This document shows positions 14,439 to 60,089 of a stretch of 64,000 bases of DNA, in pieces. Numbering within the stretch: position 1 is the stretch's first letter; each line of letters begins with the position of its first letter. The stretch lies in NCBI GenBank assembly GCA_038214535.1, contig JBBQRS010000012.1, positions 517 through 64,516 of the forward strand, read 5' to 3'. Under the pieces are notes generated by a model, which was not told where the DNA came from, searched no databases, and saw only the letters and a program-made list of their open reading frames with translations. Source of the DNA: Anaerolineae bacterium (GTDB lineage: Bacteria; Chloroflexota; Anaerolineae; CG2-30-64-16). The position numbers and the translations under genes were made by a program.

Positions 14439-14479
14439 CGAACAGCGAACTCCTCGCCATTGAGGAGCTCGCTGTTCAC

Positions 14480-14555
14480 TGGTATCCCAGAGAGGACTTG
14501 AACCTCTGGCCTCTTCCTCCGCAGGGAAGCGCTCTATCCACTGAGCTACTGGGAC
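14480..14555 (-). tRNA. tRNA-Arg, anticodon apparently GCG
   Basis: The reverse complement folds as a cloverleaf with D-loop AGUGGAUA (A20 Arg identity), anticodon stem CUUCC/GGAAG, loop CUGCGGA, T-arm GGUUCAAGUCC and an encoded CCA. Confidence 0.65.
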
Positions 14556-14582
14556 ATATTCGCCCTGTCTCACAACAGAGCC

Positions 14583-14678
<96 letters not shown>

Positions 14679-14694
14679 TAATCCTGCTCTTTAC

Positions 14695-14785
<91 letters not shown>

Positions 14786-14990
14786 AGGGAGCAGCCCTCG
14801 CCTCACCACCGCCGTGCAGTGTATCACGGACGGGATGCTCTGTCAAAAGTCGCGGCCACATTGCTCAGAACTTCTGCTCAATCGCGCTATGTCACCCTGA
14901 GCGGGTTGACGATTCAACATTCGTCGCGCCTGGACTCCAGCAAAGGGTCTTGGCCTCGTGTCGCGAGATTCTGCGTTAGAGACGGTTACA

Positions 14991-16280
14991 TCACCCGCCA
15001 GCCTCGATGCGCTCCATCCCACCCATATACGGTCGCAACACCTCCGGCACAACAATGGCCCCATCCGCCTGCTGATAGTTCTCCATCACCGCAATCATCA
15101 CGCGCGGCAGGGCCAGCCCCGAACCGTTCAGCGTGTGGACATACTCCGGTTTGGCCCCCGGCTCAGGCCGATAGCGGATATTGGCCCGTCGCGCCTGAAA
15201 ATCGAGAAAATTACTGCACGAGCTGACTTCCAACCACTCGCCGCAGCCCGGCGCCCACATCTCCAGATCGTACTTGACGGCCGCGGTGAAGCTCAGGTCA
15301 CCAGTGCACATCTGGATCACCCGGTAAGGGATGTTCAATCCGCGACACACATCTTCCGCGTTATCCACCAACTGCGCCAATTCATCCATCGAATTTTCCG
15401 GCTTCACGAACTTCACCATCTCGACCTTATCGAACTGGTGCCCGCGTTTGATGCCGCGCACGTCCTTACCCGCGCTCATCTTCTCGCGCCGGAAGCACGC
15501 CGTGTAGGCCACGTATCCCAACGGCAGTTGCGCACCGTCCAAAATCTCCTCGCGATACATATTGGTCACCGGCACTTCCGCCGTCGGAATCCACCAGAAA
15601 TCCTCTTCGATGTCCCGATAGAGCGTATCGGCGAACTTCGGCAGATTGCCCGTGCCCACCAGGATTTCGCCGCGCACCATGTACGGCGGGTAGATTTCGG
15701 TGTAACCATGCATGCCCGTATGCAGGTCCAGCATCCACGCGATCAGCGCCCGTTGCAAACGCGCCCCCGCCCCCTTGAGCAGATAGAAGCGCGTGCCGCT
15801 GAGCTTGATGCCCCGCTCGAAATCGAGGATGCCCAGCTCCGGCCCCAGCTCCCAGTGCGGCTTCGGCGCAAAGTCGAAAACCGGGATCTCGCCTTCCGCC
15901 CGCACCACCACGTTTTCCGTCTCATCCTTGCCCACCGGCACGCTCGGATGTGGCAGGTTCGGAATGCGCAGCATCGCGTCGTTGAAGGCCGCTTCGACTT
16001 CATTCAGTTCCACATCCAGGGTCTGGATCTGATCCCCAATGATCGTCATACGCTGCTTCAGCGCCTCAGTGCCCTCGCGTTTGCCTTCGCGCATCAGTGC
16101 CCCGATTTCTTTAGACCCGGTGTTGCGCTCGGCGCGCAACGCTTCGACTTCGGTCAGAATCACCCGGCGGCGTTCGTCCAGCGTCAATGCGGCTTCAACC
16201 GGCGCATCCGTTGCCCCCAACGCCACCATCGCCGCCAACACGGCCTCCCGGTTCTCGCGCATATATCTTATGTCAAGCAT
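14991..16280 (-). CDS. serS: Seryl-tRNA synthetase
   Basis: N-terminus [14 protein letters not shown] and class II aaRS motifs. ATG at 16280 with GGAGG upstream. 17 bp downstream of the preceding gene. Confidence 0.85.
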
Positions 16281-48918: not shown

Positions 48919-50571
48919 GTGGAACTTAAAGACTACATTCGACCGATTCGTAAATGGTGGTGGTTGATTGCCGCATCGGTGCTCATCGCGACGCTGGCCG
49001 CTTATGTCGCGACGCGCCGGCAGCCGCCGATTTACAGCACGCGCACCACCGTCATGGTCGGCAATGCGATTGACAACCCGAACCCCAGTGGGTACGAGTT
49101 TTATCTCACCCAGCAATTAGCCAATACCTACGCCGACATTGCCGGTCGCGACAACGTCCGCGACGCGATCCAGATCGCGCTCGATTTGCCTTACGTGCCG
49201 CCCTACTCGGCGCGTGTCGTGCCCAACACCCAGTTGGTCGAAATAGTCGTCACTGACACGGACCCGCGCCGCGCGCAAAGCGTCGCCGAAGAAGTCGTTC
49301 ACCAACTCAGCCAGCTCAGCCCCACCGGTCAGGGCGGCCAGAGCCAGGCGCGCCAGGAATTCATCCAGAATCAGCTCAACGAGCTGGAAACCAACATTCG
49401 CAACACCCAGGCTGAATTAACCAAGCGCCAGGATGAATTGGCGACGCTTTTCAGCGCCCGCCAAATCGCCGATGCTCAGGCCACCATCGCCGGCCTCCAG
49501 AACAAGCTCGCCACGCTTCAGACCAATTACTCCGGCCTGCTCGCCAACACCCAGGCGGGCGCGCTCAACGCCATTAACATCATCGAAAAAGCTGCCCTGC
49601 CAACGAACCCGGTCGGGCCCAACAAGATGATGACCATCCTGATGGCCGCGGCGATTGGGCTCGCGCTGGCGACGGCCGCGAGCTATCTCCTCGAATACAT
49701 GGACGACTCCCTGAAAAACCCCGAGGATGTCAAGAAGGCCCTTGGGGTGACGACGCTTGGCGCCGTGCCGCGCATTGATGGCACAGCTCCCGGCAACGAA
49801 CTCGCGATCCTTACCAACAGTCAATCCACGGCCGCCGAAGCCTATCGCGTGCTGCGCACCAATCTGCAATTCGCAGCCGTTGACCGACCGCTAGATACTC
49901 TGTTGGTCACCAGCCCGGCCCCCAGTGAGGGCAAATCCATGACCATCGCCAATCTGGCGGCGGCGCTGGCCCAGGCCGGCCAGAAGGTCATCATCGTGGA
50001 CACCGACCTCCACCGCCCGCGCCTGCACAAAGTCTTTGGCCTGCGCAACAACCTCGGCGTCACCACGGCGCTCCTGCAAGAGCATCCCAATATTGACGGC
50101 TTGCTCCAGGAGACCACCCTGCCGAATCTGCGCGTGCTGACCGCCGGCCCATTGCCGCCCAACCCGGCCGAGTTGCTCGGTTCGCAACGCATGGCCGAAC
50201 TTATGGCAACCCTCAAGAACGAGTCGGACATCGTGCTCTTCGATAGCCCGCCCGTAACGGCCCTATCGGATACGGCGATCCTCTCCACGCAGATGGACGG
50301 TGTGCTGCTAGTCATAGACGCCGGCAAGACGCGTCGCGACATCGCGAAGCGCGCCATCGAAGCGCTAAACCGCGTCAATGCCCACGTGATCGGCGTGCTG
50401 CTCAATCGCATGCCCATGCAAGGCGGCGGCGGTTACTACTACTACTACCAGTATGGCGACTATTACGGGTCAAACGACGGCTCCGCCAGCCAGGGTAAGA
50501 AGGGCAAGCGGCCGCGCGCTCGAGCGCGCGGTGCCGAGTCGCCGCAAACGATCACCGAAACGCCGCAATAA
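48919..50571 (+). CDS. Polysaccharide co-polymerase / tyrosine autokinase (Wzc/EpsB-like: Wzz domain + BY-kinase)
   Basis: N-terminal Wzz TM domain, a coiled-coil region, Walker A SEGKS, A' VDTDLHRP, Walker B VLFDSPP, and a C-terminal Tyr cluster GGGGYYYYYQYGDYYG. GTG start. Confidence 0.75.
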   Translation: MELKDYIRPIRKWWWLIAASVLIATLAAYVATRRQPPIYSTRTTVMVGNAIDNPNPSGYEFYLTQQLANTYADIAGRDNVRDAIQIALDLPYVPPYSARVVPNTQLVEIVVTDTDPRRAQSVAEEVVHQLSQLSPTGQGGQSQARQEFIQNQLNELETNIRNTQAELTKRQDELATLFSARQIADAQATIAGLQNKLATLQTNYSGLLANTQAGALNAINIIEKAALPTNPVGPNKMMTILMAAAIGLALATAASYLLEYMDDSLKNPEDVKKALGVTTLGAVPRIDGTAPGNELAILTNSQSTAAEAYRVLRTNLQFAAVDRPLDTLLVTSPAPSEGKSMTIANLAAALAQAGQKVIIVDTDLHRPRLHKVFGLRNNLGVTTALLQEHPNIDGLLQETTLPNLRVLTAGPLPPNPAELLGSQRMAELMATLKNESDIVLFDSPPVTALSDTAILSTQMDGVLLVIDAGKTRRDIAKRAIEALNRVNAHVIGVLLNRMPMQGGGGYYYYYQYGDYYGSNDGSASQGKKGKRPRARARGAESPQTITETPQ

Positions 50572-50862: not shown

Positions 50863-52314
50863 ATGACATTACTTCCGAAGAGAGCAAACTTACTCCTGAT
50901 TGTGGTCCTGCTGTTAAGCTTCACGCTCGCCATCCCGGTGAGCGCGCAGGCTCCGACGCCGGAACCCAACGACATCGAGCTCGCCCTGGTGCTTGACGGT
51001 TCGGGCAGCATCGGGATCGATAACTTCAGAATCATGAAAGAAGGCATCGCGGCGGCCCTCGCTAACCCCGCATGTGTGCCGGAAGATGGTTCCATCTGGG
51101 TTTCCGTAACCCAGTTCGGTGCGGACGCGACGGTCGAGATGCCGCTGACGGAAGTCACGGTCGCCAGCATTGCCGGCATTGCCGCGACGGTGGCAAACAT
51201 TCCCTACAAGGATTCCTTCACCAATTATCAGGCAGGCATCGAGACCGGCTTGAGCACTTACGCGGGTACCGGTCGCCGCCAGGTCATGAACTTCGCAACC
51301 GATGGTCAGCCGAATACAGGCGACATCCAGCACACACCCACCTTGCGTCAGATGGCGATTGACGCCGGTGTTGATGAACTGGACATCGAAGCCATTGGCG
51401 ACCCTGAGATCCTTAACATCCCGCGCCTTCAGGACCTTGCCCACCCGCAGCCGGGCGTCCTCTGGGAAAATACGCCCCTGCCGACTGCACCGGGTTGGGT
51501 AAAACGGGTCGAGAATTACAATGAGTTCGCGGACAGCATCTGCGCCAAGTTCGTTTCGATCGCCAGCGGTCGCCTGGTCGTCAGCAAGGTCACGAACCCC
51601 AGAGGCGCGGGCCACGTGTTTGACTTCTCATTGACCGGCCCCAATACGAACGAAACGTTCCAGTTGAAGGACGGCGAAAGCTTCAGCACCGAGGCGAACC
51701 TGGCGGACGGAACCTACACGGTTACCGAAATCTACAATGACGACGGAGCCGGGGGCGAAGACGGCTGGACGACAGCCATCTCCTGCGACACCGCGCCGCC
51801 CACCACCTCAGAGACCAACACGATTGACGTGATGGTTGACGGCCCGGTGGAGTGCATCGTCACCAATACCGCCGATCCGACATCGGTGCAACTGGCCGAT
51901 TTCAGCGGCGCCGTCAAGCCGGATCACATCCTGCTGAGCTGGGAAACCGTCAGCGAAGTGAACAACCTGGGCTTCAACGTCTACCGTAGCGACGCCGCCA
52001 ACGGCGCGCAGAGCCTCATCTCGGCCACGATGATCCCGGCCAACAACCCGGGCGCGACTCAGGGCTCGACCTACAGCTTCCAGGACACCAACGTGCAGCC
52101 GGGCGTAACCTACTACTACTGGCTCGAAGATCTGGACGCAACTGGCCAGGCGAGCAAAGCCGGCCCGGTGGCCGTGACCTTCCTCGGCCCCACGTCCGTC
52201 GGCCTGAATAGCTTCACCGCTGCGGCTTCGTCGGCTCCCGCCCTGCTCGGGTTGGGGGGCGCAGCAATGGCTGCCCTCGCCGGCCTCGCCGTCGCCCGTC
52301 GCAAACAAGACTGA
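50863..52314 (+). CDS. Secreted vWA-domain protein with C-terminal PEP-CTERM-like sorting signal variant
   Basis: Signal peptide, the MIDAS-like LVLDGSGSI motif, a central beta-sandwich region, and the C-terminus SAPALLGLGGAAMAALAGLAVARRKQD (hydrophobic helix plus basic tail). Confidence 0.5.
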   Translation: MTLLPKRANLLLIVVLLLSFTLAIPVSAQAPTPEPNDIELALVLDGSGSIGIDNFRIMKEGIAAALANPACVPEDGSIWVSVTQFGADATVEMPLTEVTVASIAGIAATVANIPYKDSFTNYQAGIETGLSTYAGTGRRQVMNFATDGQPNTGDIQHTPTLRQMAIDAGVDELDIEAIGDPEILNIPRLQDLAHPQPGVLWENTPLPTAPGWVKRVENYNEFADSICAKFVSIASGRLVVSKVTNPRGAGHVFDFSLTGPNTNETFQLKDGESFSTEANLADGTYTVTEIYNDDGAGGEDGWTTAISCDTAPPTTSETNTIDVMVDGPVECIVTNTADPTSVQLADFSGAVKPDHILLSWETVSEVNNLGFNVYRSDAANGAQSLISATMIPANNPGATQGSTYSFQDTNVQPGVTYYYWLEDLDATGQASKAGPVAVTFLGPTSVGLNSFTAAASSAPALLGLGGAAMAALAGLAVARRKQD

Positions 52315-52346: not shown

Positions 52347-52535
52347 ATGGAGAAAATCACACACACGCAGCCGATGGCGACCAGGCAAGTCTGGGAAGAA
52401 CCCGCCATCATCCTTGAACGCCCGTTGGAAGTCGTCGCCCAGGATGGCCCAACCGATGATAACTGGGTCGCACCCAGCCCGTGGCGTCTGCCCGGCCCGC
52501 TTGCCGCATCCGGCGGCGCCGGCTTCTGCCAGTAA
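52347..52535 (+). CDS. Candidate RiPP precursor peptide, copy 1 (62 aa)
   Basis: Strong RBS AAGGAG 10 nt upstream. The C-terminal 47 aa are identical to copy 2 at 54391 despite many synonymous nucleotide differences. A terminator follows. Confidence 0.6.
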   Translation: MEKITHTQPMATRQVWEEPAIILERPLEVVAQDGPTDDNWVAPSPWRLPGPLAASGGAGFCQ

Positions 52536-52561
52536 TCACCTGCCCTGACTCGTAACATGGT

Positions 52562-52596
52562 GCGCCGGGCCTTGCGGCCCGGCGCATTTGTTTTTT
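52562..52596 (+). terminator. Rho-independent terminator (GCGCCGGGCC-TTGC-GGCCCGGCGC + ATTTGTTTTTT)
   Basis: A perfect 10-bp GC stem followed by a U-run, 27 nt after the precursor stop. Confidence 0.65.
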
Positions 52597-52697
52597 CCAC
52601 CGGCGTCTCCGGCGCAAGTTGCTGATCGCAACAGTCGTTGCGACTTATCGTCGCCAGTAGAGATGCCTCAATGACCCGGTAATGTAACTTTGCTTGC

Positions 52698-52726
52698 TTG
52701 ACACTTGCATCACTCCATGCTAAAAC
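52698..52726 (+). promoter_or_regulatory. Candidate sigma70-type promoter (TTGACA-17 bp-TAAAAC) upstream of the RRE/rSAM genes
   Basis: Consensus -35 with an AT-rich -10 at 17-bp spacing, in the 270-bp gap between the terminator and the PqqD-like gene. Confidence 0.3.
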
Positions 52727-52867
52727 TAAAGCGATTGCCGTAGAGGTCGCTTACGGATCTGGGCGGCTGCGATTGTCTTCCTGGTCCGGGCAATGTCGCC
52801 CCCATCACCCGGCAGTGACCCGCTATTTACTGCCAATTCTTTGACTCCCAACGGAGCACAAAACGTC

Positions 52868-53155
52868 ATGTCTCAAACCGATACCCGCAGGCCATCGCAT
52901 CATTCACGAACGGCATCGCGCGTCTTCAGCGGTGAAGCCGTGGTCATTACCCCTGCCGAAAACGTCGTGCGTATGCTCAACCCGATCGGTTCCCGAATCT
53001 GGGAACTGGCCGACGGCACGCGCACGATTGACGACATAGCGTCCGTGCTCACCGGCGAATTCGATGTAGACTTCGCTCACGCCCATCAAAGCGCAACAAC
53101 CTTCGTCGAAGACCTGGCTGCCAGAGGCTTGATCGCATTCGAGGAGAGCGAATGA
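52868..53155 (+). CDS. PqqD-like RiPP recognition element (RRE) protein
   Basis: About 95 aa. The motif GEAVVITPAENVVRMLNPIGSRIWELADGTRTIDDIASVL matches the PqqD family pattern (E.V.L.....y.LN..g..IWeLldG..t..eI). GGAG RBS. The stop overlaps the rSAM start. Confidence 0.6.
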   Translation: MSQTDTRRPSHHSRTASRVFSGEAVVITPAENVVRMLNPIGSRIWELADGTRTIDDIASVLTGEFDVDFAHAHQSATTFVEDLAARGLIAFEESE

Positions 53156-54345
53156 GCGGCATTCCTCTGATGCTCACGCCACCCACAGAGCCTCTGCATC
53201 GCGGTTTCGAGGCTTGCGGCTCAGACAGCGCCCCACACGATGCCTTCGAGGCGCTGCTGGCGCGGATGCGTGACGAGTTCATCCCCTTCACCGTGCTTTG
53301 GGAGATGACCCACACCTGCAACCTGGACTGCATCATGTGCTACAACGTGAAGCAGTCGCAGCCCGAGCTCGCGACCGATGAAGCGTTGGAGTTGCTCGAA
53401 CAGATGGCGCAGGCAGGGACGTTACGGCTCATCATGACCGGCGGTGAAATCCTGGCCCGCCGTGACTTCTTCACCATCGCCAACCGGGCACGCGCCCTGG
53501 GTTTTGCGCTGGACCTGAAAACCAACGGCAGCCTGCTCACGTCCGAATCTGCGGATCGCATGGCCGCGTTGGAACCGGTGCAGGTGGAAATCAGCCTGCT
53601 TGGCGCGACCACGGCGACGTTCGACGCCATCGCGCAAAGCAAGGACACGCTGCGGCGCGTCCTGCGCGGCGTCAAGCTCCTGAAAGAGCGCAGCGTCCGC
53701 GTCAAGCTCAATACCCTGCTGATGGACCTCAATTTCGCCGAGCGTGAGCAGATGTTCGAAATCGCAAGCGAGCTTGGCGTGGAGTACGAACAGGCCATCA
53801 AGATATCCCAGTCTGATGACGGCTCGGACAAGGCCGGCAGCCACCAGATCAGCCGCGCGCAGATCACCGACACGCTGGTCACCTACGAAGCGCCGTTTGC
53901 GCCGATTCAACTCACGCCCAACCGGCGCACCTGTAAAGTGGGCTTGTCTTCGTGTCTCATCAGTCCCTACGGCATCGTTTACCCGTGCGTCGAATTGCGC
54001 ATCCCCGCCGGCGATTTGCGCAAACGCTCGTTCGGTGAGATTTGGGCCGACGCGCCGATTTTTAGCAATTTACGGGCAAACCACACATTCAAGAATCTGC
54101 CGGAATGCCAGGTCTGCCCCATCAACACCTATTGCGAGGGGCGCTGCGCCGGCCTGGCATGGAAAGAGCACGGCGATCCTTACGGCGGTCACATGCTGGC
54201 CTGCCGGCACGCGCAAGCGCGCTTCGCCCAACAGAACCCGGATGAAGCCATCCCTGAGACGCCGTTGCAGGCGCGCCTCAAGCGTGAGCGCGGCGGCGAA
54301 CAAGAAACCGTCAAACACCAACCGATTATGCTTGTTGACATGTAA
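53152..54345 (+). CDS. Radical SAM / SPASM-domain peptide maturase
   Basis: The CNLDCIMC (CX3CX2C) motif after an N-terminal extension, and a C-terminal Cys-rich SPASM region (CKVGLSSC...YPC...CQVCPINTYCEGRC). Confidence 0.8.
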   Translation: MSGIPLMLTPPTEPLHRGFEACGSDSAPHDAFEALLARMRDEFIPFTVLWEMTHTCNLDCIMCYNVKQSQPELATDEALELLEQMAQAGTLRLIMTGGEILARRDFFTIANRARALGFALDLKTNGSLLTSESADRMAALEPVQVEISLLGATTATFDAIAQSKDTLRRVLRGVKLLKERSVRVKLNTLLMDLNFAEREQMFEIASELGVEYEQAIKISQSDDGSDKAGSHQISRAQITDTLVTYEAPFAPIQLTPNRRTCKVGLSSCLISPYGIVYPCVELRIPAGDLRKRSFGEIWADAPIFSNLRANHTFKNLPECQVCPINTYCEGRCAGLAWKEHGDPYGGHMLACRHAQARFAQQNPDEAIPETPLQARLKRERGGEQETVKHQPIMLVDM

Positions 54346-54390
54346 TTTGGTTGTTATGTAAACGTTATAGAGAAGCGAAGGAGTCGTCTC

Positions 54391-54579
54391 ATGGACACAA
54401 AACCATATCCGCAAAATGTCGTAACCAAACGAACGTGGGAAGAACCCGCGATCATCCTGGAACGCCCGCTCGAGGTCGTCGCGCAAGACGGGCCGACCGA
54501 CGACAACTGGGTCGCGCCCAGCCCGTGGCGTTTGCCCGGCCCCCTCGCCGCATCCGGTGGCGCCGGTTTCTGCCAATAA
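54391..54579 (+). CDS. Candidate RiPP precursor peptide, copy 2 (62 aa)
   Basis: AAGGAG RBS. The residue 16-62 region is identical to copy 1 (WEEPAIILERPLEVVAQDGPTDDNWVAPSPWRLPGPLAASGGAGFCQ). The N-terminal 15 aa differ. Confidence 0.6.
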   Translation: MDTKPYPQNVVTKRTWEEPAIILERPLEVVAQDGPTDDNWVAPSPWRLPGPLAASGGAGFCQ

Positions 54580-54607
54580 TTATCCGTACACAACCCTATA
54601 GGCAAAG

Positions 54608-54640
54608 ATTGCGAGGTCTTGGAACCTCGCAATTTAATTT
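54608..54640 (+). terminator. Rho-independent terminator (ATTGCGAGGT-CTTGGA-ACCTCGCAAT + TTAATTT)
   Basis: A 10-bp perfect stem and a U-rich tail about 30 nt after the copy-2 stop. Confidence 0.55.
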
Positions 54641-54671
54641 ACACCCTTTGAGAGGCAGCGTGTCGTTAGCA

Positions 54672-57536
54672 ATGAAAAACCACAAGCGCGCCTGGGGCGT
54701 CATCTCGGCTATCCTCCTGGTGTCCATGCTCGTCACACCCGGATATGCCGGCAGCGCCGCGCAGGCTTCCGAACCGATCACACTCAGCGTCCGAACTCCC
54801 GAATATCAACTTGACGCGGCCGGTCTGCGCGTGCCCGGCTATACCACAAATCGTACGCCCGGCGCGCCGGCCCTTCCCGTCTATCAAACCATCGTTGAGT
54901 TGCCCCCATCGGGCGATTTCCAATTAGTGGTGACCACGCCCGGCGCTCAGGAGATGGCGACCTCTGTCACCATCCCCGCCGCGCCGTCACCCGATCCATC
55001 CGCCGATCATCCTCGCACCGGCTCCGATCCGGATGAGTTGCCCACCGACGCCGCCATGATCGTGCAACCCGACCCCGCGATCTACGACGTGGACGCCTTC
55101 TATCCGGGCCAGCCGGTCATCGCGGGCGAGGTGCAAATCCAGCGCGGCCGCCGGTTCCTGCCGCTCCAGGTGTTCCCCTTCCAGTACAACCCGACCACCG
55201 GCGCGCTGCGTTATCTGCCTGATATTGGCGTCACCGTGGAAATCACGCCCGCCGACAGCCAGGCAACCAACATTGCTGCACCCGATCTGGCACAGGTCAA
55301 CCCGCCTGCCGTGAACGGCGCCGCGCTGCGCATCTACATCTCGCAGCGTGGGATGCATCGGCTCACGTACAGCGACCTATCCGCCGCTGGCGTGCCGTTG
55401 GCCTCGACCAACGTCTCGGCCTTCGCCATATACTATCTCGGCCAGCCGGTGGACATCCAGGTGCTGGACCGCAACGGCAACAACCGGTTCGACGCCGATG
55501 ACCTGGTCATTTTCTACGCCGAGCCCTATCAGGGCCGCTACATGACCCGCAACGTCTACTGGTTCAGCTATGGCGCGGGCAGCGGGGCGCGGATGCAAAC
55601 GCGCGCCCGCACACCCTCGGGCGGGGAACCTGTCGTAACATCCATCACCCAGACCTCCCGCGTCGAGGTGGACAAGGTCTACGTGAGCGACATTCAGCGC
55701 CCGATAGACGAAGACCATTACTATGACAACTCGCTTTACGCCAACGCCGCCTACCCCACCGTAACCCGGACCTATAGCCTGCCTGTGGACGACCTGGTGA
55801 CCTCAGGCGCCGCATCGCTGCGCGCCAGCGTCTACGGGGGTAAAGTGCAGGGCGCCGCCACCGACCAATCCATGGCGATCCGTGTCAACGGGAACAACGC
55901 CGGAACGTACAAGTGGAAAGGCAAAACGGGATATACCGCCTCGACGGGCGTCTCCGGCGCGTGGCTCACCGATGGCGTCACCCAGGTTACGCTGGAAGCC
56001 GCGTTGAGCCAACTACCGGCGCTATCGTACTACTGGATTTACCCCGATTGGGTCGAACTGACCTATACCGCCACCGCCGACGCCGAAGCCGATCGCATCT
56101 ACATCGAAGCCGCGCCCGCGGGGGCTAATAAAGTCGTAGTGACAGGTTTCTCGTCGCCTGACGTACACGTGTACGATGTGCGCAACCCGCGCCAACCCGT
56201 CCAACTGACGACAGTGCAATCTCAGCCTGCGGGTGGAAGCAACACCATCCACTTCTGGGACGCCGATCTACCGAACCCGAGTTACTATCTGGCAACCGAA
56301 GCCGCACTGCTCGCGCCCGCCGAGATCCAGGCCGATACGCCATCCAGTTGGCAGTCGCCTTCCCGCAACGCGTCTTACATCGCCATCGTCCACAGCGACC
56401 TGTGGAACGCCGTCCAACCGCTACTCGACTTCCGGCAGGCCGAAGGGCTCGCCGTCGCCAAAGTCAACATCCAGGACGTTTACGACGAATTCAGCTACGG
56501 ACTGGTTGACCCCGAGGCCATCCGCGCATTTCTGACTTACGCCTATCAAAACTGGCGCAGCGACGGCAGCCCCCCCGAATACGTCATGCTTGTCGGCGAT
56601 GGGCATCACGATTTCAAGAACGCCGAAAACTCGACGCTCAAGAATCTGATCCCGCCCTACCTCGTGGACATAGACCCGTGGATCGGCGAAACCGCGGCGG
56701 ACAATCGTTTCGTCAGCGTGGACAGCCCCACAGACTTCCTGCCCGAAATGCACATCGGTCGGGTCTCCGCGCAGGATGCAGCAGGCGTCAACGCCTTCGT
56801 CAACAAGGTACTGGCCTACGAAGGCGCGCCCGGCGGGGCGTGGCAAAGCAACGTCGCCTTCATCGCAGACGACTGCAATAACGCGGTGGGCGACTTTAAC
56901 GCCATCAGCGAACTGATCCGTAAGAACTGGTTGCCCGCGCAATACAACGCATCCAGGACTTACTATCGCGTGCCGACGGCGGGCGACAACTGCCCCAATG
57001 CGAACTACACCGACCCGGCGGCGATGAAGAACGCCATCAAGACCGTCTACAACGGCCAGAATCTCATGTTACAGTGGTTCGGGCACGGCTCGCGCTTCCG
57101 CTGGGGCTATTCTTCCAGCCTCTTCAATTACGAAGATATCCCGGCGTTGGCCCCGAACACCGTTTGGCCCGTAGTGATGCACTACACGTGCTACACCGGT
57201 TACTTCCACAACGTCTATCAGAATCTGCAATCGCTGGCCGAAACGGAGTTGACCACCGCAAACCGGGGTTCCGTCGCCAGCTACGCCGCCACCGGTCAAC
57301 ACCTGGGCGTGGACGAACTGGTGATGAACGAGGGCGTCAACAAGGCCCTGTTTTATGATCGCCTGCCGCGGATCGGTCAGGTCATAGACTCGGCCCGCTA
57401 CTTCTACTTCGCAAACTCGCCGGTCTACCTCGACCTGATTGACTCTTCGGTTCTGTTCGGCGACCCGGCGCTCAAGGTCAAGTTGCCGGCGGCCATGGTC
57501 AACGTCAGCACGTACTTGCCAATGATCTCGCGGTAA
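54672..57536 (+). CDS. Secreted clan CD cysteine peptidase, C25 (gingipain)-like family, with large N-terminal propeptide/beta-rich region
   Basis: Signal peptide MKNHKRAWGVISAILLVSMLVTPGYAGSAA. Catalytic-dyad-like motifs WFGHGS (His) and HYTCYTGYF (Cys) in the C-terminal third. A GTG at 54660 is an alternative start. Confidence 0.5.
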   Translation: MKNHKRAWGVISAILLVSMLVTPGYAGSAAQASEPITLSVRTPEYQLDAAGLRVPGYTTNRTPGAPALPVYQTIVELPPSGDFQLVVTTPGAQEMATSVTIPAAPSPDPSADHPRTGSDPDELPTDAAMIVQPDPAIYDVDAFYPGQPVIAGEVQIQRGRRFLPLQVFPFQYNPTTGALRYLPDIGVTVEITPADSQATNIAAPDLAQVNPPAVNGAALRIYISQRGMHRLTYSDLSAAGVPLASTNVSAFAIYYLGQPVDIQVLDRNGNNRFDADDLVIFYAEPYQGRYMTRNVYWFSYGAGSGARMQTRARTPSGGEPVVTSITQTSRVEVDKVYVSDIQRPIDEDHYYDNSLYANAAYPTVTRTYSLPVDDLVTSGAASLRASVYGGKVQGAATDQSMAIRVNGNNAGTYKWKGKTGYTASTGVSGAWLTDGVTQVTLEAALSQLPALSYYWIYPDWVELTYTATADAEADRIYIEAAPAGANKVVVTGFSSPDVHVYDVRNPRQPVQLTTVQSQPAGGSNTIHFWDADLPNPSYYLATEAALLAPAEIQADTPSSWQSPSRNASYIAIVHSDLWNAVQPLLDFRQAEGLAVAKVNIQDVYDEFSYGLVDPEAIRAFLTYAYQNWRSDGSPPEYVMLVGDGHHDFKNAENSTLKNLIPPYLVDIDPWIGETAADNRFVSVDSPTDFLPEMHIGRVSAQDAAGVNAFVNKVLAYEGAPGGAWQSNVAFIADDCNNAVGDFNAISELIRKNWLPAQYNASRTYYRVPTAGDNCPNANYTDPAAMKNAIKTVYNGQNLMLQWFGHGSRFRWGYSSSLFNYEDIPALAPNTVWPVVMHYTCYTGYFHNVYQNLQSLAETELTTANRGSVASYAATGQHLGVDELVMNEGVNKALFYDRLPRIGQVIDSARYFYFANSPVYLDLIDSSVLFGDPALKVKLPAAMVNVSTYLPMISR

Positions 57537-57583
57537 GTTGGCGCTCCGACTATCCCTGTAGCACAAACGCGATTAGAATAGGG

Positions 57584-58777
57584 ATGCAGCATCGGCTGCG
57601 TCCCTATTTTTTTTGGAAAGCGCCAATGGCCGCTAACTCAGTATTCGATCCCTTTGAGCTTTCAACGCGAGGCTCTCTTCCACCGAAGTGGGTGGACTGG
57701 CTGGGCCACACGCTGCGCGCGGAGGGCGCGCCGCCTGCGCCCGATCACCACCTCCTCGCCGAATGGCGCGCCGTGCTGCCCGCACTGGACGTTCACGCCA
57801 TCACGCCGCTGCTCTACCTGCGCCTGCGCGACGCCCGCCTCCTGCAAGCCTTGCCGCCGGAATTTCGCGATGCGCTCTACGTCACATTTCAAGACAACGC
57901 CTTGCGCTCCCTCGTCTTCGAACACGAACTTGAATCCATCATTGCGACCTTCGCGCGTGAGGGCATCCCCCTGATCTTGCTCAAGGGGCTTGCCACCGGG
58001 CGGCTGGTCTACGGCAGTCCCGCCGAACGCCCCATCGGAGACCTCGATCTGCTGGTTCCTTTCGACGATATGGCGCGGGCGCGCCGCACCCTGCGCCAAG
58101 CCGGCTACGAGAGCATCGGCTGGGCCGGGCTGGATCGTGTGGCGCGCTGGCAACACGCCTTCCGCTCGGAGATGCCCATGCTCTGCACCCGGCCCGACCG
58201 CTACGGCCTGGTCACCGAGTTGCACTGGTCGCTATTAGAGATTCCCTACTACATCCAGTGCATCCCTATGGCGGATGTTTGGGCTGCCGCCGCGCCGGTA
58301 TCCGGCCACCCCGGCGTCAGCGTCCCCGACCCGGCCACCCTGCTGATCCACAGCGCCGCGCACCTGGCGCTACATCACAGCCGCGAGCTGCGCCTGATCT
58401 GGTTGCTCGATCTCGACCGGCTCGCCCGCTGGCAGGCAATGGATTGGGCCGGGGTGATCGCATGGACGGAAACCTGGGGCCTCGGCAGGGCCGTCCACAC
58501 GGCTCTGAGCGTCTCACAGCGCTGGCTTGGCACGCCCGTCCCGCCAGACGCCCTTGCGCAACTCTCGCGGCTCACACATAGCGCCGCGGGCGATGCCACC
58601 TGGGGACTGGGCGATGAACAGGCCGGCCGCTCGCGCCGTCGCGCCGTCGTCAGTTGGCAATTGCTGAATGGGCGCGACCGCCTGCGTTACGCTGCCTGGC
58701 TGGGGTTTCGCTTGCTCCTGCGCCCCTTCGAGCTTGCCGGCCGCCCGGACAAACGCGCGAACATGGAGGTTCACTGA
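57584..58777 (+). CDS. Nucleotidyltransferase-fold protein (PF14907-like uncharacterised nucleotidyltransferase)
   Basis: Pol-beta NTase signature PIGDLDLLVP...D. This family is recurrently encoded beside HPr-kinase-like genes in RiPP (lasso) clusters. Confidence 0.5.
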   Translation: MQHRLRPYFFWKAPMAANSVFDPFELSTRGSLPPKWVDWLGHTLRAEGAPPAPDHHLLAEWRAVLPALDVHAITPLLYLRLRDARLLQALPPEFRDALYVTFQDNALRSLVFEHELESIIATFAREGIPLILLKGLATGRLVYGSPAERPIGDLDLLVPFDDMARARRTLRQAGYESIGWAGLDRVARWQHAFRSEMPMLCTRPDRYGLVTELHWSLLEIPYYIQCIPMADVWAAAAPVSGHPGVSVPDPATLLIHSAAHLALHHSRELRLIWLLDLDRLARWQAMDWAGVIAWTETWGLGRAVHTALSVSQRWLGTPVPPDALAQLSRLTHSAAGDATWGLGDEQAGRSRRRAVVSWQLLNGRDRLRYAAWLGFRLLLRPFELAGRPDKRANMEVH

Positions 58778-58778
58778 A

Positions 58779-59621
58779 ATGGCTGACGCGCTCACGCTCG
58801 ACATCAGCGGTCTGAAGATCTCCGTCGGCATCCCCCATCCCGATTGGCGCCCCGGCTTGGCCGAACGCTATGCCGCCTTCCTGAGCGACGACTCGCCGCG
58901 CTGGCGCGTGGATTTGCGCCACGACCCGGCGCTCACAGACACCGAGCATCCCTGGCTGCGCCACCACGGCGCGCTTTCGGTCTTCCGGGTTAACGCCTAC
59001 GCCGGCTGGATAGATATGGCGCGCCGCGCCGGATCGGTCGCCACGCCTTCCCACGCGCGGGCCGTCTCCGCCCTCGAACGCACGTTGGCCTACGTCTGTA
59101 TGCAGGCCCTGCCGCGTGAATACGATGCGCTCCTGCTCCACAGCGTCGGCGTTGAGGTGGGCGGACAAGGTCACGTTTTCTTTGGGCCGTCCGGCGCGGG
59201 CAAAACCATGATTGCGCGTTTGAGCGCAGGCTTCGGGCGTATCCTCAGCGATGAAAGCATCATCCTCCGTGACACCGGCGACGGCATCGCCCTCGACAGC
59301 ACCCCCTTCTGGGGCCTCAGCACGCCCCCGGAGATGGTGCATCGGGTGCGCCGCACGCTACCCCTCACGGCGCTCTACACGCTCGTCCACGCCCCCACCT
59401 TCGAATTGGAACGTCTGCGCCCGTGGGAGGCCGTCTCGACTTTGCTGAACACCGAGAAGGTCGCCGTAGAGCGCGTCGAAAGCGCCACAGTCTGGCTCTC
59501 CATCGTCGAGCGCATCCTGGCGCGCGTGCCGGTCTACCGGCTCAGTTTTCCGCCAACGGCCGATCTCTGGCCGTTCCTCAAATCCGCGCTCCCTGAACGT
59601 GCGTCGCCGCCGGCCGCCTGA
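58779..59621 (+). CDS. HPr kinase/phosphorylase C-terminal-domain-like P-loop protein (putative peptide kinase)
   Basis: P-loop GPSGAGKT preceded by LLLHSVGVEVGGQGHVFFG, like the HprK C-domain. GGAGG RBS. The start overlaps the upstream stop region. Confidence 0.5.
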   Translation: MADALTLDISGLKISVGIPHPDWRPGLAERYAAFLSDDSPRWRVDLRHDPALTDTEHPWLRHHGALSVFRVNAYAGWIDMARRAGSVATPSHARAVSALERTLAYVCMQALPREYDALLLHSVGVEVGGQGHVFFGPSGAGKTMIARLSAGFGRILSDESIILRDTGDGIALDSTPFWGLSTPPEMVHRVRRTLPLTALYTLVHAPTFELERLRPWEAVSTLLNTEKVAVERVESATVWLSIVERILARVPVYRLSFPPTADLWPFLKSALPERASPPAA

Positions 59622-59624
59622 ACG

Positions 59625-60089
59625 ATGCCCACGTCTTCCATCCCGCAGCACCGCGAGGCCGCGGCCTGGGTCCCCCTCCTGCTGGAGATCCTCAACCAGA
59701 AGGGGCGCTGCCGCTGGCCCTTACGCGGCCAGAGTATGCTGCCCACCCTGCCCTCCGACTGCGAGATTGACGTCGCGCCGCTGCCGTTCGACGTGCCGCT
59801 CGGTTCGCTGATCGTCTTCGCCAACGGCGACGCGCTGGTCGCCCATCGGCTGGTGCGGCGCGCCGGCGCCAAATGGATCGCGCAGGGCGACCACCGTCGC
59901 AGTCCCGACAGAGGGCTTGATCCCGCCCAGGTATTGGGCATCGTGCGCGCAGCCTACCTTCCGAACGGGGAACAATGCTGGCCGCCGGCCTTGTCCGGCG
60001 CGCTGGCGTGGTATTGGATTGCGCGCTATCATATGTATCGAGCGGCGCGCTTCGCCATTCGCGCGATGTACGGTCGTCCCAGAGGATAG
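59625..60089 (+). CDS. S24/S26-family (signal peptidase I / LexA-like) peptidase
   Basis: GQSMLPTL Ser-nucleophile motif and a downstream conserved basic residue region (AHRLVRR). 154 aa. Confidence 0.45.
   Translation: MPTSSIPQHREAAAWVPLLLEILNQKGRCRWPLRGQSMLPTLPSDCEIDVAPLPFDVPLGSLIVFANGDALVAHRLVRRAGAKWIAQGDHRRSPDRGLDPAQVLGIVRAAYLPNGEQCWPPALSGALAWYWIARYHMYRAARFAIRAMYGRPRG

Follow-up and report, generated by a model that had tools for sequence, protein, structure and literature searches.

Which product does a compact group of genes in this Anaerolineae genome make, and which residue of its peptide is the target? The locus lies at 52347-60089 of the window, the whole 64,000-nucleotide stretch analysed here, and a sequence-only reading had taken it for a self-contained RiPP cluster that might define a new class of radical SAM (rSAM)-modified peptides. 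We searched the window proteins against Pfam and NCBIfam profiles with family cut-offs and compared the locus with its counterparts in other genomes. The results indicate that it is probably a ribosomal-peptide maturation cassette conserved across the class Anaerolineae.

Gene layout and the precursor peptides

All eight ORFs were found on the + strand, co-directional, at the coordinates that the sequence-only reading had given (52347-60089). The cassette and its associated features are as follows.

48919..50571, +: Wzz/BY-kinase polysaccharide co-polymerase, associated context
50863..52314, +: vWA protein, associated context outside the maturation machinery
52347..52535, +: precursor peptide A1, 62 aa, lineage-specific extra copy
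52559..52598, +: terminator-like hairpin and T-run of the intrinsic type, directly 3' of A1
52868..53155, +: PqqD-family stand-alone RRE (Pfam PqqD), 95 aa
53152..54345, +: radical SAM/SPASM peptide maturase, 397 aa
54391..54579, +: precursor peptide A2, 62 aa
54606..54635, +: 12-bp hairpin, then A/U-rich sequence, 3' of A2, weak terminator or attenuator candidate
54672..57536, +: secreted clan-CD C25 cysteine peptidase, 954 aa
57584..58777, +: PF14907 'uncharacterised nucleotidyltransferase' (NTase; Pfam), 397 aa
58779..59621, +: ScmC-like/HPr-kinase-like (HPrK-like) P-loop protein, 280 aa
59625..60089, +: S24/S26-like (clan SF) serine peptidase with conserved motifs, 154 aa

The mechanical PqqD ORF begins at 52793, but translation probably starts at 52868, which gives the ortholog length of 95 aa; that of C25 begins at 54351, overlapping A2, and its true start is the Met before the signal peptide at 54672. 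For the HPrK-like protein the likely start is 58779, not 58668.

The two 62-aa peptides share an identical 47-aa C-terminal region (residues 16-62), as first noticed. Within the 47 shared codons, A1 and A2 differ at 18 synonymous sites and at no non-synonymous one; their first 15 codons show 12 non-synonymous changes, and the flanking DNA is unrelated. This pattern, far beyond chance, shows that A1 and A2 are real genes under purifying selection in this frame. The A1 leader (approximately residues 1-31) contains W16-E-E-P-A-I-I-L-E-R-P-L-E-V-V-A31, and the core runs from Q32 to the C-terminal …L-P-G-P-L-A-A-S-G-G-A-G-F-C61-Q. Each peptide gene is preceded by an AGGAG ribosome-binding site, that of A1 lying 8 nt upstream. 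The hairpin 3' of A1 has a 13-bp stem, 10 of whose pairs are GC, and at -35 kcal/mol (z = -4.4) it is more stable than all 200 shuffled sequences; the 12-bp one behind A2 (-18.6 kcal/mol, z = -1.9), equalled in stability by 6 of 200 shuffles, is a weak candidate for a terminator or attenuator. A2 occupies the position conserved in the family, 3' of the rSAM gene and 5' of the C25 gene.

Conservation of the cassette and co-variation of Cys with the rSAM

The order PqqD-rSAM/SPASM-peptide-C25 was found in about 45 Anaerolineae loci, with rSAMs 51-94% identical, in Anaerolineales, Caldilineales, Thermoflexales, Ardenticatenaceae, Ca. Amarolinea and Litorilinea. In these some 45 loci homologous peptides adjoin homologous rSAMs, so the small ORFs are conserved as the original proposal had anticipated. 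In about 44 loci the gene immediately before the rSAM is a PqqD ortholog. With few exceptions the peptide gene adjoins C25, also in L003, whose rSAM lies 7 kb off, and C25, rightly counted in the cluster, is the most constant partner (30 of the 31 loci with enough downstream flank). Within 10 kb of the cassette, the kinase occurs in ~53%, the NTase in ~45% (17/38) and the S24-like peptidase in ~26% of loci, so that these three may be accessory or encoded elsewhere. A survey of the neighbourhoods found no conserved transporter near the cassette, and peptides of the A1/A2 type have no signal sequence.

The peptide family comprises 131 matches; in a set of 1.84 billion representatives it forms 134 clusters (50% identity), all unannotated. 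The leader has a basic pair and then the motif W-x-x-P-x-I-x-L-E-R-x-L-E-[VA]-x-A, with Q directly after it; the motif is present in 112 of 113 members. At the putative cleavage site Ala occupies -1 in 110/112 and V/A occupies -3 in 108/112. The core starts with Q-G-G-P-P and ends with [FL]-[LI]-G-P-[LF]-x-x-S-G-…-C plus 0-3 aa; the last Cys lies at most 3 residues from the C-terminus in 99 of 112 peptides, and its distance from G-P-L is 8-14 residues. Across the 113 members, conservation is limited to the leader motif, G-P-[LF], a Ser and a single C-terminal Cys. The two Trp and many Pro of the window core are thus lineage-specific, and the Trp-derived cyclophane suggested earlier is unlikely to be the defining chemistry. 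The cassette fits no curated family, every NCBIfam score being far below its cut-off. Of the proposed new rSAM-modified class, the RiPP-type cassette and the lack of a curated family hold, but the Trp/Pro features held to mark its core do not extend beyond the lineage.

The distribution of Cys provides a clue to the modified residue. Seven distant, independent loci (L082, L083, L084, L085, L086, L088 and L089) encode Cys-less peptides in the arrangement PqqD->peptide with no rSAM, while C25, S24 or ScmC is kept; the distant Cys-bearing member L093 has an rSAM. Variants that retain PqqD, peptide and C25 but lack the rSAM also mean that the rSAM is not the universal core of the unit. Without correction for phylogeny, the association of Cys with the rSAM has a Fisher p of 4.5e-8; it could stem from just one evolutionary event, and one exception, P0337, has two Cys yet lies directly after PqqD, on contigs <1 kb. 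Among core side chains, Cys alone is invariant in loci that have the rSAM. That Cys-less peptides go without the rSAM points to Cys as the enzyme's target, and it is probably the site of modification. Whether the resulting link is a thioether is close to an even call, leaning slightly against; the single thioether named earlier as an alternative fits the conserved C-terminal Cys better, its chemistry being predicted.

Enzymes of the cassette and their nearest relatives

The PqqD protein matches Pfam PqqD (8.9e-16), and its stop codon is overlapped by 4 nt by the rSAM ATG (ATGA), which confirms a stand-alone PqqD-like RRE translationally coupled to the rSAM. Its best NCBIfam matches, all below cut-off, are ScmD, GeoRSP PqqD and lasso PqqD. 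The rSAM matches Radical_SAM (2.3e-20) and SPASM (9.8e-10), the latter being the domain on which the peptide-maturase proposal hinged. It carries the cluster motif C56-x3-C60-x2-C63 and the auxiliary-cluster cysteines C261, C268, C279, C319, C322, C328, C332 and C351, and the SPASM cysteines are invariant in 27 homologs. PqqE (1.9e-21) and SkfB (4e-18) are the closest solved relatives, and full-length sub-threshold alignments to StsB and AlbA were obtained.

Peptidase_C25 (7.1e-74) and NTP_transf_5 (PF14907, 2.2e-50) were likewise detected as expected; for the HPrK-like and S24/S26-like window proteins the Pfam search gave no match, so that the anticipated Hpr_kinase_C and Peptidase_S24/S26 hits were missing. 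Both identities nevertheless draw support from elsewhere. The HPrK-like protein gave NCBIfam matches below cut-off (ScmC 5.5e-6, HprK_rel_A 1.4e-5), and PF27840 ScmC is the annotation of an ortholog with 82% identity. The ScmC-like alignment has an invariant Walker A G-P-S-G-A-G-K-T with S-D-E 16 residues later; PEPCK_ATP is matched by 9/13 orthologs and Hpr_kinase_C by 2/13, and a distant homolog attains the Hpr_kinase_C gathering score. In the S24/S26-like alignment S37-M-x-P-T-L, H74-R-L and G88-D89 are invariant, the Ser/His/Asp pattern of ER/archaeal-type signal peptidases. All of its PDB profile matches (7/7) are signal peptidases, the best being SEC11C (0.013), and 8 of 11 orthologs match Peptidase_S24 (best 1.7e-8). 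In the Nitrospiraceae locus L060 the NTase is fused to an S26-like peptidase, and this fusion matches TIGR02228 (7.6e-7). The window protein, which has no clear N-terminal membrane anchor, is a candidate leader peptidase.

C25 has an N-terminal Sec-type signal peptide, a PorU-like catalytic domain with a His (G-H-G) and Cys (Y-T-C) dyad, and a C-terminus ending …S-T-Y-L-P-M-I-S-R. That this enzyme is secreted while the peptide, having no signal sequence, would be cytoplasmic counts against the pathway proposed below. Its only solved relative is PorU (6za2, 1e-10), the C25-family C-terminal signal peptidase/sortase of the T9SS; the catalytic domains are homologous over ~370 residues with the dyad aligned. 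PorU is also the best NCBIfam match, but the score of 219 bits is below the cut-off of 420, and the N-terminal 570 residues and C-terminal tails differ. To our knowledge, T9SS is not known in Chloroflexota.

Among the nearest known systems is the SynChlorMet cassette of TIGRFAMs/NCBIfam (SCM; ScmC, the PqqD-like ScmD and the rSAM/SPASM proteins ScmE/ScmF), together with the related HPr-rel-A and GeoRSP systems. It shares the PqqD-family, rSAM/SPASM and HPrK-related P-loop parts, and ScmD and ScmC are the best matches of the window PqqD and P-loop proteins. However, none of the scores comes near its equivalog cut-off (40 vs 100, 26 vs 125 and 80 vs 400 bits), the cassette has one rSAM rather than two or three, C25 is an obligate partner, and precursor peptides are identifiable here. 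Related cassettes with PqqD, rSAM/SPASM, NTase, HPrK-like and S24/S26-like proteins occur in Nitrospirota, Methylomirabilota and Acidimicrobiia. The NTase/HPrK-like pair, first viewed as an oddly placed lasso-peptide module, therefore belongs to a recurring SynChlorMet-related cassette type. Lasso systems (PsmK/PadeK, PsmN, B1 RRE) do resemble the cassette: both combine a PqqD-type RRE and a PF14907-type NTase with an HPrK-like P-loop protein whose Walker A is followed by an acidic pair, and their leaders have the aromatic-x-x-P-x-aliphatic spacing in common. In contrast, Pfam found neither an Asn-synthetase-like cyclase nor a B2 transglutaminase-like protease among the eight window proteins, and the candidate for leader removal here is a serine peptidase of the S26-like type.

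Sactipeptide (AlbA, SkfB, StsB) and ranthipeptide (CteB, PapB, NxxcB) systems resemble the cassette in their full SPASM domain, RRE-dependent leader recognition and core Cys. Here, however, the RRE is a separate protein, one conserved Cys sits at the extreme C-terminus, and the cassette has no transporter and no recognised bacteriocin-type immunity gene. PqqE/PqqD and MftC/MftB likewise couple a stand-alone PqqD-type chaperone translationally to an rSAM/SPASM enzyme that acts on a short peptide, and an exporter is absent here as in those cofactor pathways; yet the core is unlike PqqA (E…Y) or MftA (…GVY), other pqq/mft genes are missing, and scores are below family cut-offs.

Proposed pathway, alternatives and cell-envelope context

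The peptide is very probably the substrate of the PqqD/rSAM pathway. PqqD would bind the W-x-x-P-x-I leader, whose spacing is that of the lasso Y-x-x-P-x-L motif, and present the peptide to the enzymes. The target of the rSAM would be the single conserved C-terminal Cys, which it would most likely link through one thioether ring to an acceptor 8-14 positions upstream, in or near G-P-L-x-x-S. The HPrK-like protein may phosphorylate a Ser/Thr of this motif, and the NTase may then extend the phosphate, for example with a hexose, by analogy with PsmK/PsmN in pseudomycoidin, where PsmK (HPrK family) phosphorylates Ser and the NTase-family PsmN is needed for hexose on the phosphate (PMC6993621). Such phospho-glycosylation of Ser is a tentative prediction, held with less assurance than the next step, itself somewhat doubtful, in which the cytoplasmic S26-like peptidase would remove the leader at the A-Q junction of the signal-peptidase-like [VA]-x-A/Q site. 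The product would reach the cell surface, where C25 might process or use it.

The constancy of C25, which is kept even where the rSAM is absent, leaves some room for a different role, in which the peptide is no free natural product but serves a PorU-like sorting system as co-substrate or anchor. The leader-less, phospho-glycosylated peptide would carry or prime a glycan; C25 would be a transpeptidase that links it to surface proteins sharing a C-terminal domain, or that attaches or cyclises it, with the rSAM cross-link as an optional stabiliser. Consistent with this, the only solved C25 relative is a sortase, the Q-G-G core start offers a plausible amine nucleophile, and the NTase-family PsmN adds hexose to phospho-Ser. 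Proteins that combine the shared domain with a hydrophobic helix and a tail rich in Arg are clustered in the loci, some C25 orthologs bear the domain themselves, and polysaccharide genes recur nearby, BY-kinase even beside C25-less Acidimicrobiia cassettes. We consider this unlikely: the evidence is entirely circumstantial, C25 falls well short of the PorU cut-off, no peptide export route is evident at the loci, and the domain-bearing proteins occur in only about half of them. Moreover, we know of no transpeptidase activity outside T9SS PorU. Less likely again is that the peptide is an inhibitor, latency factor or substrate regulating C25, in the style of a trans pro-peptide or RiPP protease inhibitor. 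Its gene stays beside C25 when the rSAM is distant or absent, and a gene for the protease inhibitor alpha-2-macroglobulin (A2M) follows the cluster in the window and close relatives; but no similarity to Propeptide_C25 was detected, the peptide is cytoplasmic and the enzyme secreted, and A2M is confined to those relatives.

Two further readings concern the rSAM. Enzymes of the rSAM/SPASM type with a PqqD-type RRE, such as PqqE, StrB, DarE and triceptide enzymes, make aromatic-derived cyclophanes or other C-C cross-links, and the window core has two Trp, so that Cys could be incidental. Neither Trp is conserved, however: the aligned positions hold F/L/V/M/G/N, no core aromatic is invariant, and Cys is the one whose presence goes with that of the rSAM, which renders this very improbable. 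Hardly credible is a cofactor or heme-type enzyme (AhbD/NirJ-like) beside unrelated or spurious small ORFs. The heme synthase AhbD is the best NCBIfam match and JGI labels some homologs 'AdoMet-dependent heme synthase', but 154 bits is far under the family cut-off (500), the neighbourhood has no heme genes, and the rSAM is always flanked by PqqD and a conserved peptide under strong purifying selection.

Maturation of the peptide by the PqqD/rSAM pathway, which we prefer, would take place in a setting less self-contained than first described, as vWA-type proteins and polysaccharide genes recur with the cassette in other genomes. The gene downstream encodes the bacterial alpha-2-macroglobulin, and the one upstream a vWA protein (Pfam vWA, 6.5e-11) whose C-terminal ~150 aa comprise a domain, a hydrophobic helix and an R-R-K tail; other proteins of these loci bear the same domain. 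A ~25-kb locus for cell-surface polysaccharide lies at 25.5-50.6 kb with the Wzz/BY-kinase at its end; BY-kinase is near the cassette in 11/38 Anaerolineae loci and in the Acidimicrobiia loci L049 and L050, and recurrent neighbours include a priming transferase, GT4s, BY-kinase and WecG. The adjoining polysaccharide genes and surface-anchored proteins suggest that the cassette has a role in the cell envelope, rather than being a free-standing antibiotic cluster.

Gene layout and the two peptide genes

The eight co-directional + strand genes that the sequence-only reading had placed between 52347 and 60089 are all present in the ORF list, and the flanking genes are those it named, a vWA protein (by Pfam) upstream and a bacterial alpha-2-macroglobulin downstream. 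The stand-alone RRE (PqqD) and the radical SAM/SPASM maturase (rSAM) are coupled as proposed, their stop and start codons overlapping by ATGA. The genes for the PF14907 nucleotidyltransferase (NTase), the HPrK-like P-loop protein (ScmC-like) and the S24/S26 peptidase (S24-like) are spaced by 1-3 nt. The gene starts were assigned as follows.

Starts of three cassette genes (window coordinates)
52868, + strand, most likely start of PqqD, giving 95 aa, the length of its orthologs
54672, + strand, start of the gene for the secreted clan-CD cysteine peptidase C25, with Met followed by a Sec-type signal peptide; a longer mechanical ORF overlaps the second peptide gene, A2
58779, + strand, start of the P-loop (ScmC-like) gene, directly after the NTase stop

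The two 62-aa precursor peptide genes, A1 and A2, do share the identical 47-aa C-terminal region that had been reported: their last 47 codons encode the same peptide in spite of 19 nucleotide differences, which alter 18 codons, all synonymously. In the first 15 codons 12 amino-acid positions differ, the flanks are unrelated, and the limits of the repeat are exactly the ORF limits. Both genes are preceded by an AGGAG ribosome-binding site, and a strong terminator-like hairpin lies directly 3' of A1. Since the divergence is synonymous only, A1 and A2 are real genes, neither an accidental pair of ORFs nor the artefact of a recent duplication.

The second copy (A1) is confined to the close relatives of the window at loci L001, L002 and L004. 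Residue 38 (window 52458 in A1 and 54502 in A2) is Asp in both window copies and Glu in both copies of those three loci, an agreement that holds despite many synonymous differences between the copies; the two paralogs may have changed in a co-ordinated manner, by selection or by short-tract conversion. Rfam and tRNA scans of the cassette region gave no matches, and a promoter scan within it yielded no convincing sigma-70 site. Three tRNA genes (Arg-GCG, Ser-GCT and Ser-TGA) lie on the - strand at 14480-14784 of the window.

The radical SAM enzyme and its peptide family

HMM searches gave the matches that the sequence-only reading had expected for PqqD (Pfam PqqD, 8.9e-16), for the rSAM (Radical_SAM, 2.3e-20; SPASM, 9.8e-10), for C25 and for the NTase, and failed to give those expected for Hpr_kinase_C and S24/S26 in the window's own proteins. 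The CX3CX2C motif of the rSAM (C56-N-L-D-C60-I-M-C63) is invariant in 27 homologs, and the set of 7-8 Cys for two auxiliary clusters is complete: C261-x12-G274-x4-C279, C319-x2-C322-x5-C328-x3-C332 and C351 are invariant in the same homologs, with C268 at least 90% conserved. PqqE and SkfB are its closest solved relatives. The enzyme reaches none of the NCBIfam family cut-offs; it aligns over its full length, below threshold, with the sactisynthase StsB, MftC and AlbA, and its top-scoring NCBIfam match, AhbD, covers mainly the N-terminal half. By its rSAM cluster, SPASM domain, RRE and co-located precursor, the cassette fits a predicted rSAM/SPASM RiPP maturase system with a PqqD-type RRE.

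The system is widespread within one lineage. At least 280 rSAM homologs were found, the best 120 of which are at least 59% identical, and the named sources among the homologs listed are all Chloroflexota or Anaerolineae. Scanning a single genome for each GTDB species gave 269 rSAM relatives. About 46 orthologous loci (rSAM identity 51-94%) come from Anaerolineales, Caldilineales, Thermoflexales, Ardenticatenaceae, Ca. Amarolinea and Litorilinea, beyond which identity drops to 37% or less in other phyla. As revealed by tblastn and HMM searches, the orthologous loci keep the constant order PqqD, rSAM, small peptide and C25 peptidase. A conserved precursor, with leader and core, adjoins the homologous rSAM in about 45 loci, in line with the neighbourhood proposed earlier, and PqqD does so in about 44. 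C25 is present in 30 of the 31 loci whose downstream flank extends for 5 kb or more; at L003 the peptide lies 7 kb from the rSAM, yet directly upstream of C25. The tailoring genes are patchy near the cassette: within the available flanks of 38 loci, the ScmC-like gene was seen in 20, the NTase in 17, the S24-like gene in 10 and a BY-kinase in 11. No conserved exporter was found among the recurring neighbour families, where the search for one turned up nothing but housekeeping genes (RNase J, RNase Y, RecX, Lon, PAP2 and M20). In some MAGs the C25 gene is split into several frames (L001 12356-15224, L017 11561-14326, L023 11547-14352, L073 9592-12309 and L047), as is the rSAM gene in L043, L047 and L073, probably owing to long-read frameshift errors rather than pseudogene formation.

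A profile search collected 131 peptides of 55-81 aa, all unnamed or annotated "hypothetical protein" and none with a Pfam domain; only 134 clusters emerged when 1.84 billion representative proteins were searched exhaustively with an HMM, and the family is put at some 130 clusters. Conservation was counted over 113 aligned members. The leader motif W-x-x-P-x-[ILVM]-x-x-[ED]-R-x-L is found in 112 of the 113 and is followed by E-[VA]-x-A-[QDE]-[GD]-G, in which the Ala is kept in 110/112 and V or A two positions before it in 108/112. The leader has the spacing of the lasso leader Y-x-x-P-x-L, with Tyr replaced by Trp, and its recognition by PqqD is putative. The core is a variable Pro/Gly-rich stretch that ends in [FL]-[LI]-G-P-[LF]-x-x-S-G-…-C. 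Its single near-invariant Cys lies 8-14 residues past the Gly of G-P-L and, in 99 of the 112 members, no more than 3 residues from the C-terminus. More than one Cys occurs in 29/113, the extra one being mostly in the leader; where it directly follows the invariant Pro (W-E-D-P-C-I-T-L-E-R), it marks a subfamily (for example the peptides P0147, P0155 and P0194, and loci L016, L022 and L028).

The two Trp and many Pro that the sequence-only reading had highlighted in the core turned out to be lineage-specific, W40 and W46 of the window peptides and most Pro residues being unconserved across the family. Because the Trp residues are not conserved, a Trp cyclophane is rejected as the chemistry of the class. 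The core has no invariant aromatic residue, and a conserved aromatic motif of the triceptide, streptide or darobactin type was not seen in the aligned members.

The site of rSAM action is indicated by natural variants. The weakest profile matches retain the leader and the F-L-G-P-L-S-T-S motif, terminate within a few residues of it and lack the Cys. They come from seven independent loci (L082, L083, L084, L085, L086, L088 and L089), and in 7/7 the peptide directly follows PqqD with no rSAM. The locus of a distant member that bears the Cys, L093, encodes S24, ScmC and C25 and, at its customary position, an rSAM of 53% identity. An rSAM accompanies 0/7 Cys-less peptides versus 46/47 Cys-bearing ones (Fisher p = 4.5e-8, a value that ignores shared ancestry). 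The one exception, P0337 (L091 465-629 / L092 418-582), has two Cys (…F-L-G-P-L-S-L-S-C-V-G-C-G) and directly follows PqqD without an rSAM between; its contigs are shorter than 1 kb and display gene order only around PqqD and the peptide. This co-variation is the best available, though indirect, evidence that the rSAM would act on the C-terminal Cys extension, and such variants make for a clear, falsifiable prediction of its site of action. The seven loci also keep a C25 gene (39-42% identical to that of the window), an S24-like gene or an HPrK/ScmC-like gene; since the rSAM-less variants retain these genes, PqqD, peptide and C25, with S24 and kinase, form the older core.

Two further arrangements were observed. 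At L032 the peptide copy after the rSAM has the Cys, and a second copy just upstream of C25 (14635-14790, P0216) ends in …F-L-G-P-L-K-L-S without one; it is a truncated pseudogene or else a naturally Cys-less paralog in a locus that does have an rSAM. At L089 (825-1721) a DUF362 protein (1.7e-41) is followed by the HPrK-like gene, PqqD and the Cys-less peptide.

Predicted tailoring enzymes and related cassettes

The NTase matches Pfam NTP_transf_5/PF14907 at 2.2e-50. The ScmC-like protein carries an invariant G135-P-S-G-A-G-K141-T and, 16 residues later, an invariant D157-E158, the same Walker A and acidic-pair arrangement as in HPr kinase. PsmK, the kinase of the lasso peptide pseudomycoidin, depends on the equivalent acidic residues for activity, its D158/D159 mutant being inactive (PMC6993621). 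Pfam Hpr_kinase_C does not match the window protein; among 13 orthologs it is found in 2 (up to 7e-4) and PEPCK_ATP in 9, and a distant homolog in L089 sits at the Hpr_kinase_C gathering score (33.7 versus 33.3). The NCBIfam models ScmC and HprK_rel_A match weakly, below cut-off, and an 82%-identical ortholog is annotated as PF27840 ScmC. In a profile search against PDB sequences generic P-loop matches dominate, with HPrK (1ko7) and PEPCK weakly present. Together, these matches are weak but consistent with an HPr-kinase-like protein.

The S24-like protein of the window matches no Pfam or NCBIfam model, and Peptidase_S24 is found in 8 and S26 in 2 of its 11 orthologs. Its S-M-x-P-T-L, H-R-L and G-D boxes hold S37, H74 and D89, invariant in those orthologs, and align with SEC11C, the best PDB profile match; every PDB match is a signal peptidase. 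It shares the Ser/His/Asp boxes with the ER/archaeal-type signal peptidase I (S26B; TIGR02228) but neither reaches that model's cut-off nor has the N-terminal anchor. As no obvious hydrophobic N-terminal helix is seen, the protein is probably cytoplasmic. Signal peptidases follow a -3/-1 rule at the cleavage site, and the near-invariant [VA]-x-A↓Q of the peptides agrees with it; the S24-like protein is accordingly the foremost leader peptidase candidate. Single-sequence AlphaFold2 models were uninformative (pLDDT 41.6 for the S24-like and 33.8 for the ScmC-like protein).

The kinase/NTase pair had been described as a lasso-peptide tailoring module, and its combination with this cassette as unusual for want of lasso B/C genes. 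The earlier statement that lasso B/C genes are absent holds, as neither an Asn-synthetase-like cyclase nor a transglutaminase-like protease was detected by Pfam or NCBIfam in the eight proteins and the flanking genes, and a lasso cluster is rejected on the absence of its defining cyclase and B/B2 protease. The combination itself is not unusual, having known relatives in SynChlorMet-like (SCM-like) cassettes. More remote rSAM relatives, at 31-37% identity, belong to cassettes found in Nitrospirota, Methylomirabilota and related phyla, in the order PqqD, rSAM, rSAM, ScmC-like, rSAM and NTase, at times followed by S24; in the Nitrospiraceae locus L060 the NTase is fused to an S26-like peptidase (14367-16046; 29 bits against the 51.85-bit cut-off of TIGR02228). 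In the Acidimicrobiia loci L049 and L050 the order is BY-kinase, ScmC-like, PqqD, rSAM and peptide, followed in L050 by S26-like and NTase genes; C25 is in neither. Because cassettes of Nitrospirota, Methylomirabilota and Acidimicrobiia have relatives of the pair, comparison of the loci indicates that it is integral to a broad SynChlorMet-like cassette family rather than a stray lasso module. The SCM cassette proper is in turn rejected as the identity of the window cassette by its equivalog cut-offs (TIGR04248-04251), which neither the window nor these related loci reach: the window scores are 40 versus 100 bits for ScmD, 25.9 versus 125 for ScmC, 80 versus 400 for ScmE and 56 versus 400 for ScmF. 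Moreover, SCM has two rSAM/SPASM genes, whereas the window and all Anaerolineae loci have a single rSAM.

Small ORFs were also seen in these more distant cassettes.

Small ORFs in related cassettes
L060, 11989-12147 and 12221-12427, two unannotated ORFs between the second rSAM and the ScmC-like gene
L049, about 10971-11171, Acidimicrobiia small ORF
L050, about 11025-11187 and 11214-11582, Acidimicrobiia cassette with the conserved small ORF

Those of L060 have a lasso-like leader, K-x-Y-Q-x-P-Q-L-F-R-V-x-L-x-P-E-Q-A-I-L, and Cys-rich cores, and are candidate precursors for the SCM-like cassette type. The Acidimicrobiia ORF overlaps the 3' end of the rSAM gene and reads K-K-x-W-x-R-P-Q-L-R-S-E-x-V-D-E-T-L-A-x-P-A-C-Q-F-K-P-P…G-P-A-F-S, with the same W-x-x-P-x-L leader spacing. 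To our knowledge, descriptions of the SynChlorMet-like and HPrK-related cassette families list no identified precursor. Candidate substrates for the Chloroflexota, Nitrospiraceae and Acidimicrobiia versions make these systems testable by simple co-expression.

The C25 peptidase, the envelope setting and a proposed pathway

C25 matches Pfam Peptidase_C25 over its full length (7.1e-74). Its G-H-G and T-C align with the His/Cys dyad region of PorU (6za2), the C25-family sortase of the type IX secretion system and the only solved relative; PorU proper is rejected as its identity, the score being 219.3 bits against a cut-off of 420 for the family model NF033707. The C-terminal modules of C25 orthologs are interchangeable. 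Compared with window 57510-57536, those of L001, L004, L005, L030, L044 and L073 include a bare [YF]-L-P-x-[IV]-x-[RK] tail, dockerin-like D-L-D-G-N-D repeats, a shared C-terminal domain with helix plus R-R-R, and another domain of ~110-130 aa; the window C25 has a bare tail, …S-T-Y-L-P-M-I-S-R.

The last ~150 residues of the vWA protein (window 51850-52314) form this shared domain, which recurs on many different proteins of these loci, including some C25 orthologs, with the pattern W-E-T-x-S-E…G-F-N-x-Y-R…Y-Y-Y-W-L-E-D-V-D…H-G-P-V-S-V…P-T-A-V-T-L.

Examples of the shared C-terminal domain elsewhere
L003, 15079-18180
L017, 17811-20475
L022, 14965-15831
L042, 4622-10399
others

It ends in a hydrophobic helix with an Arg-rich (R-R-R) tail in 16 of 31 cases and in a short W-L-P-x-x-x-R/Q tail in 6 of 31. 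No NCBIfam model for it was found, and by its recurrence and tails it looks like an undescribed sorting signal. BLASTP rejected a domain common to the window's own C25 and vWA proteins; the link suggested by clustering stemmed from C25 orthologs in other genomes that carry the domain. Its H-G-P-V-S loosely resembles the L-G-P-L-S of the peptides.

The window cassette is the end of a co-directional polysaccharide locus of ~25 kb.

Genes of the polysaccharide locus, 25539-50571, co-directional
Wzm/Wzt ABC transporter
two GT2 glycosyltransferases
BNR-repeat protein
RmlD
five GT4/GT1 glycosyltransferases
Wzy_C
Bac_transf priming transferase
PD40 beta-propeller protein
Wzz/BY-kinase

The priming transferase, GT4 and BY-kinase recur beside the cassette in other genomes. 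The pairing of C25 with the peptide, and this setting, hint at a role in envelope or sheath biology. In the searchable literature, no RiPP-type peptide was found that is obligatorily paired with a secreted PorU-like peptidase of clan CD in a setting of polysaccharide and surface-anchored protein genes.

A RiPP-type pathway is the best-supported reading of the cassette as judged from its genes. PqqD would bind the leader, and the rSAM would then work on the C-terminal Cys, most probably forming a single thioether macrocycle; a Cys-to-carbon thioether of the sactipeptide or ranthipeptide kind is putative here. By analogy with PsmK and the pseudomycoidin NTase PsmN, phosphorylation of Ser/Thr and extension by the NTase may follow, after which the S26-like peptidase would remove the leader at A↓Q and the product would be functionally handed off to the secreted C25 peptidase. 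Given the envelope setting and the resemblance of C25 to PorU, there is room for another reading, which we consider improbable: the cassette might be the core of a hitherto unrecognised sortase-like system of surface assembly in Chloroflexota, with the modified peptide as its adaptor or co-substrate. In that scheme PqqD would bind the peptide, the HPrK-like kinase and the NTase would phospho-glycosylate it, the rSAM could optionally close a ring, and the S26-like peptidase would trim it. As adaptor or anchor, the peptide would then be joined by a PorU-like C25 transpeptidase to surface proteins that bear the shared C-terminal sorting domain, or to polysaccharide of the adjoining locus. Were this so, the RiPP would be a structural building block of the envelope and not a secreted bioactive compound.

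The component parts of the RiPP-type pathway are of known kinds, and there are many rSAM-RiPP families that still await characterisation. Neither curated libraries nor the searchable literature contain the peptide family, its obligatory pairing with C25 or an architecture in which the rSAM is optional; full-text searches on this cassette system found nothing, the only useful precedent being the pseudomycoidin paper (PMC6993621). The peptide family has no Pfam or NCBIfam model and is class-wide in Anaerolineae, with its predicted maturation genes now identified. Anaerolineae, which are filamentous, abound in activated sludge, sediments and soils, and in them the system stands out for its class-wide conservation, its link to C25 and its immediately testable predictions.
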